Shown: positions 25,868 to 29,843 of the stretch, in pieces
How the letters are laid out: the number at the start of each line of letters is the position of its first letter
Position numbering within the stretch: the stretch's first letter is position 1
Assembly (NCBI GenBank): GCA_003645695.1
Contig: QNBN01000003.1
Location: 1 to 32,454, forward strand
DNA length: 32,454 nt
Source: Spirochaetota bacterium
GTDB taxonomy: Bacteria > Spirochaetota > B62-G9
Direction: 5' to 3'
Program-made: the position numbers and the translations under genes
The notes under the pieces: generated by a model
What the model was told of the DNA's origin: nothing
Databases searched by the model: none
What the model saw: only the letters and a program-made list of their open reading frames with translations

Positions 25868-26041
25868 TATGGTTTTATTCATTAAAATTATGGTTTTTTG
25901 TACCAGAATTTATGATTAATTATAATACCAAAATATTCATGGGTATTAAAATGATATTTAAATCTAATTTTTTATTGATATAAAATGAATAGGCAAACCT
26001 AGTCATTTATCATGATTGAAAGTGTACTTGCCTATTCATTT
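25868..26041 (+). repeat. Intergenic repeat copy 1 (MITE-like: left TIR, promoter, terminal hairpin)
   Basis: 25868-26036 aligns ungapped with 27555-27723 (169 bp, 13 mismatches by hand count); 14-bp hairpin arms at 25983-25996 and 26028-26041. Confidence 0.92.
25898..25926 (+). promoter_or_regulatory. Sigma70-like promoter inside repeat copy 1
   Basis: TTGTAC-N17-TATAAT; copy 2 has TTGTAC-N17-TAGAAT at 27585-27613. Confidence 0.55.
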
Positions 26042-26159
26042 GTAATATATTATTAACAAGATAAAGAAGAATAGACAATTTATCATTACATAGTATTTGA
26101 ATGTAGAATCATGAGTTTTCCCACTACTATTTGCAAAATTTTCATGGGAGGTGGCTGTT

Positions 26160-26642
26160 ATGGAAATTATAAACATTAAAATTGATGTTCCTGAAGGAAC
26201 AAATGTAATCATTGGACAAACTCACTTCATTAAATCAGTTGAGGACTTGTATGAGGCAGTTGTTAACAGCTCACCAACAATAAAATTTGGGATTGCTTTT
26301 AACGAAGCTTCTGGACCATGTCTTATAAGAAAGGATGGAAATGACCAGGAGTTAATTGACCTTGCCTGCCGTACAGCTGACAAAATTTCAGCAGGTCACA
26401 TATTTGTAATCTATATCAAAGATGGGTTTCCGATAAATATTCTACCATCCATAAAAGATGTAAGAGAGGTAGTAGGAATATACTGTGCGACAGCGAATCC
26501 AGTTGAAGTAATCGTGGCAGAAACCGAACAGGGAAGAGGAGTATTGGGTATTGTAGACGGGTTTTCTCCCAAAGGAATTGAAAACGATAAGGATGTTAAT
26601 GAAAGAATCGAACTATTGAAAAAATTCGGATATAAACGTTAA
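26160..26642 (+). CDS. Adenosine-specific kinase family protein (DUF355)
   Basis: [50 protein letters not shown] 26160 is 8 nt after GGAGG. Confidence 0.88.
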
Positions 26643-26740
26643 TACAGTAACATTTACCTTAAATCATTAACTTATAGCTCATAAAAAACTTCAGAATATT
26701 GACCAGGAGCTAAAACAAAATATGGTAAGGGTCGCCATGT

Positions 26741-27469
26741 TCAAAGTGGATCGATGGTCTGGGATAGAGCCATTAAATCAACGCTCCATACATTGTAGTA
26801 CTTAGGCAGAGTAATTAAAAATTCAATTATATGGGCAATATCCTCAGGTTCTATCATCTTACCGCTGGTAAAAGGTTTTTCTATTCCTGCTTTCTTAGCC
26901 CACTCTGTGTTTATCATAGCCGGAGCAATAATGCTTACCTTTATCCCGTATTCTTTAACCTCATTCCATAAAGCTCTTGAAAACCCTTCAACTGCATGTT
27001 TGCCAGCTGTATAAACAGCAAGTCCTGACCTTGACCTTTTCCCGAGAATTGAACTAACATTTATTATGTACCCTTCACGCTGCTTTTTCATTACTGGTAT
27101 TGCTGCCTTACATCCATATAATACGGATATAAGATTAATTCTAATACCATCATCAATCTCATTAATAGTGAGATTTTCAAACTTAGTATACCGGATACCT
27201 GCTCCTACATTATTGACAACTACATCTAATCTACCAAATTTTTTCACCGTATTATCAAAAAATCTCTCGACTTCATTCCATGATGTAATATCCACAGTTT
27301 CACTGTAAGCTATACCCCCTTCAGAATTTATCTTGCGCACAATTTCATCTATTAAGTTCTTTCTTCTTGCACATATAGATACCCTATACCCCTTTTCTGC
27401 CAGGTAGAGTGCAGTAGCTCTGCCTGTTCCAGAGGATGCCCCTGCTACCAAAACTACCTTCCCAGACAT
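26741..27469 (-). CDS. Short-chain dehydrogenase/reductase
   Basis: AGASSGTG, ARR, NNVG, YTAGK; AAGGAG RBS. Confidence 0.9.
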   Translation of the reverse strand: MSGKVVLVAGASSGTGRATALYLAEKGYRVSICARRKNLIDEIVRKINSEGGIAYSETVDITSWNEVERFFDNTVKKFGRLDVVVNNVGAGIRYTKFENLTINEIDDGIRINLISVLYGCKAAIPVMKKQREGYIINVSSILGKRSRSGLAVYTAGKHAVEGFSRALWNEVKEYGIKVSIIAPAMINTEWAKKAGIEKPFTSGKMIEPEDIAHIIEFLITLPKYYNVWSVDLMALSQTIDPL

Positions 27470-27554
27470 AATTTTCTCCTTTATGTTTTCGCCTTTTATT
27501 TATATTTTAATATAACCAGTATCAATTTCAATTTATATTTTTGCTTCTGGTAAT

Positions 27555-27723
27555 TATGGTTTTATTCATTAAAATTACAGTTTTTTGTACCAGAATTTGT
27601 GATTAATTAGAATAACAAAATATTCATGGGTATTTAAATGATATTTAAACCTAATTTTTTATAGGTATAAAACGAATAGGCAAACCTAGCCTTTTATTAT
27701 GATTGAAAGTGTACTTGCCTATT
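27555..27723 (+). repeat. Intergenic repeat copy 2
   Basis: Direct repeat of 25868-26036 (offset 1687); hairpin arms AATAGGCAA (27675-27683) and TTGCCTATT (27715-27723). Confidence 0.92.
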
Positions 27724-27764
27724 TACAGTTTTGGTATTTTTCTAAAATTAAAGAGGGCTCACCT

Positions 27765-28970
27765 ATGCAAAGAAGTATTGAAGAGATAAATGAAAAAATA
27801 AAAAAGAATAAAGCGATTGTTTTTACTGCAGAAGAAATTATACCCTATGTTGAAGAAGTCGGTTATAAAAAGGCAGCCGAGAGAGTTGATGTAGTCACTA
27901 CAGGGACATTCGGGCCTATGTGTTCATCGGGTGCATTCTTAAATTTGGGGCATACTACCCCGAGGATGAAAATACAAAGGGCATGGCTTAATGGTGTTTT
28001 AGCATATGGGGGATTAGCGGCAGTAGACCTGTTTATAGGTGCCACTGAAATACCAGATGATGACCCTGCTAACAGGATACATCCCGGTTTATTTAAATAT
28101 GGGGGAGGACATGTAATTGAGGATCTGATCTCGGGTAAGGATATATTTCTGAAAGCTGTCTCATACGGAACAGACTGCTACCCCAGGAAAGAACTTGAAA
28201 CCTATATAAATATACGGGATTTAAACCAGGCTTATATTTATAATCCAAGAAATTGCTATCAGAACTATAATGTAGCAGTAAACCTTTCCAAAAAGGTTAT
28301 ATATACATACCTTGGAGTTTTGCAACCAAACCTTGGGAATGCAAACTTCTCCTCTGCAGGACAACTGAGCCCGCTCTTGAATGATCCATATTACAGAACC
28401 ATAGGAATTGGAACAAAAATTTTCTTAGGAGGTGCACAGGGTTTTGTTTCATGGGAGGGAACTCAGCACAACCCAACCGCGCCGAGAGGTGAAAATGGAG
28501 TTCCAAAAGAAGGTGCTGGCACAATAGCAGTTACAGGTGATATGAAAAAGATGAATGCAAGGTACATTCGCGGTGTCTCTGTTATGGGATATGGTGCAAG
28601 CATGGCTGTAGGAATCGGTATACCAATACCTATTATCGATGAAGATATGATTCGTTTTGTTACGGTAAAAGATGAAGATATTCTCGCTCCAGTTGTAGAT
28701 TACTCAATGGCATATCCAAGCAATAAGATAAAAGTATTGAGCTATGTAAATTACAGAGATCTACGTAGCGGTGAGGTAGAGATAAAGGGGAAAAAGGTTC
28801 CGACTGCTTCTCTTTCAAGCTACCCGATAGCGAGAGAAATTGCAAACACATTAAAAACCTGGATCCTTAAAGGCGAGTTCTTGCTAACTGAAAAAGTTGC
28901 ATCATTGCCAGGAGTTGAATCCGGTCAGGGTTTTTATCCTTTAAAAATAAGATCTGAAAGGATAAAGTGA
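27765..28970 (+). CDS. Homocysteine biosynthesis protein (DUF39, MA1821/MJ0100-like aspartate-semialdehyde sulfurtransferase)
   Basis: VDVVTTGTFGPMCSSGA, YGGGHVIEDL, GTDCYPR, NPRNCYQNY, PLLNDP, GTQH; likely true start ATG 27765 after AAGAGGG (the 27699 start lies inside the repeat). Confidence 0.9.
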   Translation: MQRSIEEINEKIKKNKAIVFTAEEIIPYVEEVGYKKAAERVDVVTTGTFGPMCSSGAFLNLGHTTPRMKIQRAWLNGVLAYGGLAAVDLFIGATEIPDDDPANRIHPGLFKYGGGHVIEDLISGKDIFLKAVSYGTDCYPRKELETYINIRDLNQAYIYNPRNCYQNYNVAVNLSKKVIYTYLGVLQPNLGNANFSSAGQLSPLLNDPYYRTIGIGTKIFLGGAQGFVSWEGTQHNPTAPRGENGVPKEGAGTIAVTGDMKKMNARYIRGVSVMGYGASMAVGIGIPIPIIDEDMIRFVTVKDEDILAPVVDYSMAYPSNKIKVLSYVNYRDLRSGEVEIKGKKVPTASLSSYPIAREIANTLKTWILKGEFLLTEKVASLPGVESGQGFYPLKIRSERIK

Positions 28971-28971
28971 T

Positions 28972-29391
28972 ATGACAAAAACTCAATCAAGAAATATACT
29001 GCTTCATTACCCTAAAAATCTTACAGACAAACCAATAATCTCAAATCTTATTAAGAATTATGATCTCACAGTGAACATCTCAAAAGCGAGAATTGATCAG
29101 GATGAAGAAGGGACAATGATAATTGAAATATCGGGAACATCAGAAAACATTAACGATGGGCTAAAGTATCTCAGGGAAATTGGTGTTACCTACAAACCAA
29201 TATCCAAGGTTGTTAATTGGAATCAAGATAAATGTACCCATTGTAGCGCATGTACTGTTGTATGTCCCGTTGGAGCGCTTTATATTCCTGATAGAAACAA
29301 CATGTTGATAACCTTTGACGAGAAAAAATGTATAGCCTGTGGATTATGCGTACCGGCTTGTCCTTATAGAGCAATAACCATATCCGAATAG
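28972..29391 (+). CDS. NIL domain plus 2x[4Fe-4S] ferredoxin (MA1822-like partner)
   Basis: N-terminal NIL domain; CTHCSACTVVCP and CIACGLCVPACP; 1 nt after the DUF39 gene. Confidence 0.9.
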   Translation: MTKTQSRNILLHYPKNLTDKPIISNLIKNYDLTVNISKARIDQDEEGTMIIEISGTSENINDGLKYLREIGVTYKPISKVVNWNQDKCTHCSACTVVCPVGALYIPDRNNMLITFDEKKCIACGLCVPACPYRAITISE

Positions 29392-29404
29392 ATATTGATA
29401 AAAT

Positions 29405-29590
29405 TTATTCTATCGATTGATTCTGAAAATCCAGTGCCATGTGTAATTCTTCTTGAGTAACAATACTGAGATTAACAAGAATTTCCCCAAGCTTTTGACC
29501 AGTTGATTTTTGAATCTCAAGTGCCTCATTTATATCATCAATATCGATAAGGCCAGCTTCAATTAGAACTTCCCCCAGCTTTTTCCCCAA
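29405..29590 (-). CDS. Stand-alone MshEN-like (c-di-GMP-binding type) small protein
   Basis: Two 24-residue motifs KLGEVLIEAGLIDIDDINEALEIQ and KLGEILVNLSIVTQEELHMALDFQ joined by a 5-residue linker; AAAGGAGG RBS, TTG 29590 gives suitable spacing. Confidence 0.8.
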   Translation of the reverse strand: MGKKLGEVLIEAGLIDIDDINEALEIQKSTGQKLGEILVNLSIVTQEELHMALDFQNQSIE

Positions 29591-29623
29591 TAAAATCAAA
29601 CCTCCTTTTACATTAATCTCTAA

Positions 29624-29843
29624 ATAGTTTTATTCATTAAAACAATCTTCCAATCAAAATAAAGAACTATATTTGTCTATTCGTTTTATGCCTATAAAAA
29701 AGTTATATACAAGAATTGCCCAATATTTTGGCCTTCTAATTAAAACTTTACATGCTGGTATTATACATATCAAAGAAAGCTGGTACAAAAGAAAAAGATA
29801 TAGCTCCGCCAGATGTAATATCAATATTAATAAATAAAACTAT
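29624..29843 (-). mobile_element. Putative MITE, inverted and diverged repeat copy 3 with both terminal inverted repeats
   Basis: TIRs ATAGTTTTATTCATTAA (29624-29640) and TTAATAAATAAAACTAT (29827-29843), 16/17 complementary; 29672-29701 matches the reverse complement of 27655-27684 at 28/30. Confidence 0.72.

Follow-up and report, generated by a model that had tools for sequence, protein, structure and literature searches.

The window considered here is a stretch of 32,454 nucleotides (nt) from a Spirochaetota bacterium (GenBank assembly GCA_003645695.1, contig QNBN01000003.1, positions 1 to 32,454 of the forward strand). Its source assembly, G000, comprises 2.72 Mb in 261 contigs, is 88% complete and has 34% G+C. 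Between positions 25868 and 29843 the window holds three copies of a short non-coding repeat, whose family is very probably a non-autonomous mobile element without terminal inverted repeats (TIRs). An earlier inspection of the letters alone, hereafter the sequence-only reading, had taken these copies for a three-copy family with TIRs and a probable MITE (miniature inverted-repeat transposable element). Its starting point, an ungapped direct repeat of 169 nt with about 92% identity, was recovered at 25868-26036 and 27555-27723 by a repeat search. Copy 1 (25871-26035, plus strand, 165 nt, GG...GCCTAT) is delimited by this repeat and by an nhmmer match at 25857-26043 (E 1.8e-42); the register 25868-26032 is equally valid from the empty sites described below, as TAT on both sides permits a shift of up to 3 nt. 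Copy 2 (27558-27722, plus strand, 165 nt; nhmmer 27549-27728, E 1.5e-45) is 92% identical to copy 1 and lies upstream of the HcyBio gene, with the target TTAT directly 5' of it (27554-27557).

Copy 3 is an old, diverged long form on the minus strand (29644-29841; nhmmer 29850-29644, model positions 11-163, E 6.5e-18). On that strand TTAT (29845-29842) stands 5' of it, and the 3' arm of the terminal hairpin is missing. The copy matches copy 2 in inverted orientation over 55 nt at 84% (27655-27709 and 29647-29701), its closest family member is 76% identical, and it is found in contigs from sequencing runs X4, X6 and X8; the diverged inverted third copy proposed earlier is therefore real. The 17-nt inverted repeat said to bound it exists as well (29624-29640 and 29827-29843, 94% complementary), but it is not a TIR. 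Instead, it arises because the truncated end of copy 3 abuts a solo left-module fragment of about 21 nt in the opposite orientation (AATAGTTTTATTCATTAAAAC, 29622-29643, plus strand), so that two left modules stand inverted to each other. In copies 1 and 2 the modules are intact. The left module of copy 1 (GGTTTTATTCATTAAAATTATGGTTTTTTGTACCAGAATTT, 25871-25915, plus strand) is defined by the conservation profile and by the predicted helices P2 and HP1, and that of copy 2 (27558-27602, plus strand) by the conservation profile, identity across bacterial families and predicted folds. The terminal hairpin P4 occupies 25988-26036 (plus strand) in copy 1, where an inverted pair and the predicted fold agree on the outer arms AATAGGCAA (25988-25996) and TTGCCTATT (26028-26036), and 27675-27723 (plus strand) in copy 2, with predicted outer arms at 27675-27683 and 27715-27723.

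Each of the three copies is intergenic, and a Pfam scan of eight window open reading frames (ORFs) detected no transposase, as the sequence-only reading had also stated. Copy 1 lies between a divergent MurG-like glycosyltransferase gene of the GT28 type (24731-25831, minus strand; PF03033 and PF04101), which is outside the element, and a downstream gene of the PF04008 'adenosine-specific kinase' family (26151-26642, plus strand; 2.3e-74). A short-chain dehydrogenase gene (26741-27469, minus strand; PF00106) is divergent from copy 2, and downstream of copy 2 follows an operon (27699-29391, plus strand) encoding HcyBio (27699-28970; PF01837, 1.4e-156) and a NIL-ferredoxin (28972-29391; PF09383 and Fer4). 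Such a pair represents the sulfide-dependent route to homocysteine in methanogens and further anaerobic organisms; here it lies near the PF04008 gene in a spirochete, and the gene order is repeated in the metagenome locus L148. Downstream of copy 3 is a 64-amino-acid (aa) ORF without an assigned family (29405-29599, minus strand), for which Pfam gave only a weak sub-threshold FumaraseC_C match; its two LGE(V/I)L-type half-repeats are reminiscent of the cyclic-di-GMP-binding MshEN/T2SSE_N domain. On the other side of copy 3 stands a gene for a 547-aa protein (29865-31508, minus strand) in which Pfam recognises a GT2 glycosyltransferase and a C-terminal phosphotransferase-system EIIA-2 domain, an uncommon combination.

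The family extends far beyond the window. A BLAST search of G000 with copy 1 gave 52 matches, and iterated nhmmer searches raised the count from 71 to 130 and finally 134, of which 95 span at least 100 model positions. The description as a three-copy family thus holds for the window and understates the genome, while the high genome-wide copy number that had been suspected is borne out. No member lies within an ORF of at least 90 aa, and overlaps with crude ORF calls reach 72 nt at most. Many copies are found at the contig ends of G000, which is expected since the repeat breaks assemblies. Similarly, sequencing-run contigs end within copy 2 and so say nothing on its status there.

Outside G000, the element occurs in 7 of the 17 genomes of a sister family (f2) in the same order; none was found in the single further genome from the family of the window itself or in the 21 other genomes sampled from the phylum. 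By BLAST, the sister-family copies are recognised mainly through their left ~45 nt, with up to 96% identity, whereas nhmmer recovers whole units of equal length and architecture with a differing centre. A strict left-module pattern matched 37 stretches in five species-representative genomes, all of them metagenome-assembled genomes (MAGs) of uncultured Spirochaetota, and 60 stretches of metagenome contigs. The same pattern had no match in viral contigs, and blastn in its distant mode gave no similarity to plasmids and phages. The family's home is an order of uncultured Spirochaetota from marine sediments and hydrothermal vents. Its element-rich genomes are G000, G002, G006, G010 and G017, with completeness of 60-96%.

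Evidence for mobility comes from natural filled and empty sites. In contigs of the sequencing runs X6 and X10, which stem from different studies, position 25867 is joined to 26033 so that 165 nt are skipped, with an ambiguity of 3 nt; the filled form of copy 1 is also present in X6. The metagenome locus L148, orthologous to window positions 25503-29593 at 94-97% identity, lacks exactly copy 1 and retains copy 2. Its empty site reads ...GATATATTAATA|TATTTATTTG... against ...TTAATA[TATGG...CTTGCC]TATTCATTTG... in the window, and the flanks are about 97% identical. In near-identical metagenome contigs the copy 1 site was the only site to differ from the genome. Copy 1 is absent in three independent metagenome data sets and is a young, polymorphic insertion. 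Further, a 156-nt copy in G006 (locus L033) is absent in the sister species G002 and G010. The empty site of G002 reads AAATAT|TTTTTGATATC, where the flanks abut within 1 nt and the right flank begins one base later at TTTTGATATC. At the site orthologous to one G010 copy (L040, on G010:C80), the two other species of genus g3, G002 (C7:109017-109205) and G006 (C14:31153-31329), hold unrelated sequence of near-equal length (175-187 nt), and the G002 sequence includes a 14-nt match to the first bases of the element (AAGGTTTTATCCAT).

The empty sites fix the ends of the unit at 165 nt and leave room for a target duplication of at most 3 nt, TAT. The sequence-only reading had named as outcomes that would speak against a mobile element a lack of further copies and a sequence fixed at the same sites in distant relatives. 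What was found are further copies in the genome and in the sister family, and presence/absence polymorphism at exact boundaries, so that its view of a non-coding, non-autonomous, mobile sequence moved in trans holds. The copies differ in age. For five of them the nearest neighbour is identical at 97% or more, with pairs in that group at 97-99%, whereas identity to the nearest neighbour has a median of 83% among 64 copies and pairwise identity a mean of 72%; judged from these identities, the ages form a spectrum.

The ends were aligned from 59 full-length G000 copies with 70-nt flanks. Conservation begins at TTAW|GGTTTTATYCATTAAAAT and ceases after ACTTGCCTAT(T). The unit exists in a short form of about 155-166 nt and a long form of about 200-207 nt, the latter with some 45 additional nt after GTACCAG. 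Across these copies there are no terminal inverted repeats, as the left end GGTTTTATYCAT agrees with the right end ACTTGCCTAT, taken as its reverse complement, at GG/CC only; TIRs as a family feature have to be given up. The earlier statement that no clear target-site duplication is visible stands, since flank matches of at least 2 nt occur in 17 of the 59 copies as compared with 15.3 expected from shuffled pairings.

The target is short and asymmetric. In the 59 own-genome copies, the base 5' of GG is T in 35 and A in 22, the left triplet ending in A in the latter, and the right end is ...CCTATT in nearly all. This provides an independent basis for the invariance of the right end, which in a second set of 61 distinct copies from relatives and metagenomes is built into the last triplet because the scan demanded ...CTAT. 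The left tetranucleotide in that second set is TTAT in 39 copies, ATAT in 10, TTAA in three and CTAT in three, and T occupies positions +1 to +5 on the 3' side of the element in 41, 35, 43, 53 and 40 of the 61. The left and right triplets vary independently, TAT or TAA on the left and constantly TAT on the right. With a variable left triplet and a constant right CCTAT, the right TAT would therefore belong to the element and the left TAT to the target, which points to specificity and not to duplication. The polarity of insertion is fixed, with (T/A)TAT on the left and a T-run on the right. Empty sites of the form ...ATAT|TTATTT and ...AATAT|TTTTT conform to this, and an inter-species empty site shows the T-run to be host sequence. 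An asymmetric target with constant polarity would therefore suggest strand-specific recognition as opposed to a symmetric double-strand reaction of the DDE type. Head-to-tail dimers (...CCTAT|GGTTTT...) were seen in loci L108, L122 and L126, of which L108 and L126 may be one locus in two samples; such dimers fit an element whose own end re-creates its target.

The left module of about 45 nt is the most conserved part of the family and is predicted to form two overlapping hairpins, while the centre of the unit is variable. In the predicted folds the first bases (AUGGUUUU, or GUUUUAU in the family of the window) also pair over a long range with AAAACCAU/AUAAAAC, which lies just 5' of the right module. 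A 10-bp hairpin AAAUUNUGGU/ACCANAAUUU shares sequence with another possible 5' hairpin, and the terminal hairpin (UAGGCAAGUG...CACUUGCCUA), which is long and has an inner stem, ends 1 nt from the right end. In individual copies these helices undergo neutral decay. The outer terminal stem of the own-genome copies, scored over 905 cells, has 83% Watson-Crick pairs, 6.0% G.U, 4.8% A.C and 6.6% other combinations, and the single notable double change, G:C to A:T, is seen at one pair, in 4 of 101 cells. Among subfamily consensus sequences the helices persist through sequence identity, giving no covariation support, and RNAalifold on mixed alignments recovered the outer terminal stem alone. Rfam returned no family match for the element, whether the whole window was scanned at gathering score or 25700-30000 at E up to 10, where chance hits alone appeared. 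Elsewhere in the window the Rfam scan found a bacterial small signal recognition particle RNA (15829-15927, minus strand, 63.4 bits) and, adjoining it, an 88-nt tRNA with a long variable arm (15992-16079, minus strand, 53.4 bits).

The right end resembles a terminator. The mean predicted free energy of the hairpin is -9.0 kcal/mol in the own genome and -15.4 kcal/mol in relatives. Because the hairpin lands ahead of a T-run, about half of the hairpins have at least five T in the 8 nt on their 3' side (54 of 105 own, 25 of 51 in relatives). Modelled in this way, hairpin and T-run together look like a terminator signal on the top strand. A scan of the window region for consensus terminators passed over the element hairpins because their loop exceeds 8 nt. 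More generally, promoter and terminator counts in 25700-30000 were at shuffle level with no site conserved in the element, and no conserved promoter was found upstream of it, the flanks being unrelated. Three relatives' loci (L068, L078 and L092) carry an extra CCGGU...ACCGG hairpin with a U-run, placed immediately 3' of the left module's second hairpin, a second terminator-like module within the element. The terminal hairpin is also found without a left module, in about 25 right-module-only matches in G000. Six of these solo hairpins (C78:4612-4672, C14:1247-1306, C26:15893-15956, C8:1619-1681, C118:6704-6760 and C210:3032-3094) are preceded by a GC-richer motif, AGATCCNGG...CCNGGAT / ATCCGGGCTCCACAGGCC, and a hidden Markov model (HMM) of the six finds about eight more. 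It seems that a second repeat family has the terminal hairpin in common with the element family.

In G000, 44 copies have the same orientation as the downstream gene and 42 the opposite one. By intergenic class, 43 copies lie between co-directional, 24 between divergent and seven between convergent genes, which roughly tracks the shares of genome intergenic length (62.5%, 23.9% and 13.6%, respectively). The sole bias is an excess of antisense over sense copies between co-directional genes (30 versus 13, binomial p=0.014), which is weaker in the loci of relatives (12 versus 9). Copies also form local clusters in mixed orientations, with three to four matches within 3-4 kb as compared with a genome average of about one per 29 kb; examples are C40:2006-4961, C41:851-5044, C38:11696-13003 and C102:3707-4102 in G000, and 25871-29841 in the window. 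Directly ahead of full copies, partial left modules are frequent. Clusters and partial modules suggest local hopping or nested insertion. In the metagenome loci L123 and L124, copies stand between genes of the ribosomal-protein/SecY/RpoA cluster (S11, S4, RpoA), and insertion is therefore tolerated between highly expressed co-directional genes. Beside one copy in metagenome locus L130 (3-1838, minus strand) is a gene for a TOTE conflict-system archaeo-eukaryotic primase fused to a helicase (PF22548, 8.1e-103).

The search for a mobilising enzyme covered the surroundings of the elements as well as candidate transposase loci. In the 60 metagenome loci, a right module follows within about 220 nt of each left module that is not cut by a contig end, with two exceptions: L145, truncated in the hairpin, and L155, where the left module precedes an unrelated 170-aa ORF. 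Pfam identified no transposase, integrase or reverse transcriptase among the 149 ORFs flanking these loci. A self-BLAST of 2,290 crude G000 ORFs gave no multi-copy family resembling an insertion sequence (IS): no family exceeded three members at an identity of 60% or more, and enrichment near elements was seen for none of the 15 largest G000 ORF families. Among carriers, IS91 Y2 transposases (PF04986) were found in three of the five element-rich genomes, which are the three g3 genomes, and not in G000 or G017. The element HMM, run on 16 transposase-family loci (eight IS110, six IS91, one weak Y1 and one weak TnpB), gave one whole copy, non-flanking and about 1 kb from an IS110 gene in L047. 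The transposase gene bounded by the same ends that the sequence-only reading had suggested looking for did not appear in any of the fetched partner loci. As MAGs usually lose multi-copy IS elements, the missing partner is weak evidence either way.

Several other explanations can be weighed against these data. The immediate neighbourhood might suggest a cis-regulatory leader, such as a riboswitch, or a local duplication tied to sulfur or methionine genes, given that each copy in the window has a gene in sense orientation on its 3' side and that two of these genes are PF04008 and HcyBio. This idea is ruled out by the genome-wide distribution, with its even split of orientations, and by the lack of an Rfam match; moreover, the genes beside the 60 metagenome loci have unrelated housekeeping functions (Pfam, 149 ORFs), and natural strains exist that do without copy 1. 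A classical MITE of the IS5/IS903 family, that is, a TIR-bounded deletion derivative moved by a DDE transposase, would account for a unit that starts with GG and ends with CC, for the 3-nt TAT repeat around a 162-nt core in copy 1, for the PF01609 (DDE_Tnp_1) genes in all five element-rich genomes, and for the putative likeness of the left end to that of IS903, put at 12 of 18 positions in the sequence-only reading. However, the G000 match is a relic of 143 aa, the 12 PF01609 loci fetched contain neither the element nor matching termini, and PF13359 is found in none of the five genomes, leaving the proposed IS5-type partner without a candidate. Neither does the affiliation with IS903 survive: the right end does not mirror the left, the target repeat is at most the 3-nt TAT as compared with the 9 bp of IS903, and the target is asymmetric with fixed polarity and with left and right triplets that do not co-vary. 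The classical MITE is largely refuted, and we regard it as very improbable. Copying through a transcript by a reverse transcriptase, as in short interspersed elements or retrozymes, has similarly little in its favour. Although the whole unit has an RNA-like predicted fold with a more stable top strand, and relatives show predicted G.U pairs in the inner terminal hairpin, reverse transcriptase genes (PF00078) had no match in G000, G002, G006 and G010 and occur in 5 of 20 genomes of the order, one of them element-rich. Further, the element has neither an A-tail nor a duplication of variable length, its ends are exact and its empty sites precise, and no ribozyme family was found in Rfam.

Two further readings deserve more attention. 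Site-specific recombination by an IS607-like serine recombinase or an IS110-like DEDD enzyme, with the TA or TAT common to both junctions as crossover core, would explain why TAT flanks the unit on either side and is single in the empty site, without TIR or longer duplication. Resolvase-domain genes (PF00239) are present in all five element-rich genomes and in 6 of the order's remaining 15, and IS110-type genes (PF01548) in three of the five (G006, G010 and G017). Yet the resolvase frames of about 480-560 aa are of large phage-integrase size and not of the ~200-aa IS607 type, and the element HMM had no match in 17 reverse transcriptase and resolvase loci. IS110 genes were not found in G000 or G002, the only copy near one does not flank it, and IS110 needs a long specific target, whereas here only (W)TAT and the T-run are in common. 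Since 22 of the 59 own copies have TAA on the left and TAT is constant on the right, the two junctions do not share an identical core, and we hold this explanation to be improbable. The remaining alternative is a structured small RNA or portable terminator module maintained by the host, in which the 5' domain (P1, P2) and the terminal hairpin with its U-tract are functional and mobility is secondary. It draws on an architecture that is kept in two bacterial families, where a long-range helix closes the unit and T-rich sequence follows the terminal hairpin, on the near-identity of the left module between families, on the frequency of T-tracts behind the hairpin, and on the antisense excess between co-directional genes. 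However, Rfam has no match even at E up to 10, G.U decay is about as frequent as A.C with almost no compensatory change, a conserved promoter is lacking upstream, the T-run belongs to the host and lies outside the unit, and strains with and without copy 1 coexist. A host-maintained RNA is thus unlikely, if less readily dismissed than the crossover model.

The data are better accommodated by a TIR-less, non-autonomous mobile family that is abundant, currently or recently mobile and follows unusual rules. The fuller statement, which adds a strand-specific mechanism acting in trans, is probable, although held with some reserve. In such a scheme, an enzyme supplied in trans would recognise folded, strand-specific ends and not double-stranded inverted repeats, and the closest known mode would be the 'peel and paste' on single strands seen in IS200/IS605-type (HUH/Y1) elements and in short elements derived from them. 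Insertion ahead of a host T-run would set a strong hairpin beside a U-tract and create the terminator-like signal, single copies would decay neutrally after insertion, and any effects on neighbouring genes, such as termination or insulation, would be a by-product. That the mechanism is of the HUH type remains tentative, by analogy with those elements.

A number of observations weigh against this interpretation. No transposase with the ends of the element was found. Neither Y1 (PF01797) nor TnpB (PF07282) gave a match over cut-off in any of the five element-rich genomes, a test limited for Y1 by MAG incompleteness, and the Y1 genes detected in 7 of 20 genomes of the order lie in none of the element-rich ones. 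The element HMM had no match in 16 newly fetched Y1 loci, and a 17th (L043) was likewise blank. The predicted hairpins at the two ends are unrelated in sequence (AAATTNTGGT/ACCANAATTT versus TAGGCAAGTG/CACTTGCCTA). Comparing GC skew with element orientation gave 18/24 versus 22/21 (p=0.52), a weak test since skew tracks gene strand (rho 0.90) and the direction of replication is not known in contigs. Copy 1, despite its polymorphism, is only 92% identical to its nearest relative in the assembly, so that either its source copy is unassembled or an older insertion was precisely lost. Finally, in 33 of 40 copies folding predictions give the top strand greater stability than the bottom one (z -1.66 versus -0.27, mononucleotide shuffles); together with the very high conservation of the left module between two bacterial families, this would be compatible with a functional RNA too.

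A bolder version holds that the family is moved by an enzyme or mechanism new to transposition, being TIR-less and duplication-free, having folded, strand-specific ends recognised in trans, inserting only between (W)TAT and a T-run, and acting as a self-spreading terminator. Next to the element, the five carrier genomes encode no Y1, TnpB, IS91, IS110, DDE, reverse transcriptase or serine recombinase partner. We consider it doubtful at present. If it were true, the near-identical left module in two bacterial families would be the recognition site, and its near-identity would point to horizontal spread between co-resident sediment spirochetes. In bacteria, small non-autonomous elements shape the regions between genes, cause breaks in metagenome assemblies and can rewire transcription. 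The TIR-less family described here offers exact ends, an exact asymmetric target and natural filled and empty alleles in a lineage represented only by metagenomes. It accounts for many contig breaks in these MAGs and provides strain-level markers. If hairpin and T-run do terminate transcription, this would be a mobile element that builds terminators from host sequence, and should the partner enzyme be found, it may reveal a new way of moving DNA or a wider HUH repertoire.

Set beside known systems, the element departs from the defining features of both classical MITEs and IS200/IS605 derivatives. Like classical MITEs such as the Correia/NEMIS elements of Neisseria, RUP and ERIC, it is small (155-207 nt), non-coding and intergenic, with many copies (95 near-complete) in subfamilies of differing age; it would likewise be mobilised in trans and may carry terminator or promoter signals. 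Unlike them, it has neither the TIR nor the target-site duplication that define the class, both of which were tested for. Repetitive extragenic palindromic (REP) sequences and REPINs, which are served by REP-associated tyrosine transposases (RAYTs), are also intergenic hairpin repeats, and the terminal hairpin of the family occurs solo as well. However, the unit is much longer and composite, it inserts beside TAT and a T-run, and no RAYT, a member of the Y1 family, was found in its carriers. IS91, ISCR and Helitron elements resemble it in having no TIR and no duplication, dissimilar ends, a hairpin near the 3' end and a short specific adjoining target, but Y2 is confined to the three g3 genomes among the carriers, the IS91 loci lack the ends of the element, and the target differs from the GTTC/CTTG of IS91. 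No description of the family was found in a literature search confined to MITEs in Spirochaetota or spirochetes. A census of TIR-defined MITEs reports Spirochaetes genomes to be among the richest in what it calls cMITEs (PMC11602168). Its TIR-based method would by design miss the present family.

The likeness is closest to the short derivatives of IS200/IS605, the palindrome-associated transposable elements (PATEs). The ends of IS200/IS605 elements carry similar subterminal hairpins left and right, to which a single TnpA binds, and IS606 uses TTAT. PATEs share with the family the lack of TIR and target duplication, insertion of fixed polarity directly 3' of a short specific sequence, hairpin-bearing ends, precise loss from a site, and head-to-tail dimers where the element's own end mimics the target. 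They differ in that the left and right hairpins of the family are unrelated in sequence, the right one ending 1 nt from the terminus, and in that the family has a long-range helix from the 5' end to the interior, needs a T-run 3' of the insertion point and has no Y1 or TnpB in the five element-rich genomes. The working mode is alike, and membership of IS200/IS605 is unproven. TTAT, the commonest left site of the family, is also reported to be the most frequent left cleavage site in a survey of IS605-group elements (10 of 39; PMC9956272). Within spirochetes, IS605-like stem-loops on Borrelia plasmids are reportedly linked to lipoprotein genes (PMC2775950). Those stem-loops belong to another lineage and lie on plasmids, whereas the present family is a defined 165-nt chromosomal unit; compared by description only, both are spirochete stem-loops of apparent transposon origin that are scattered without a transposase.

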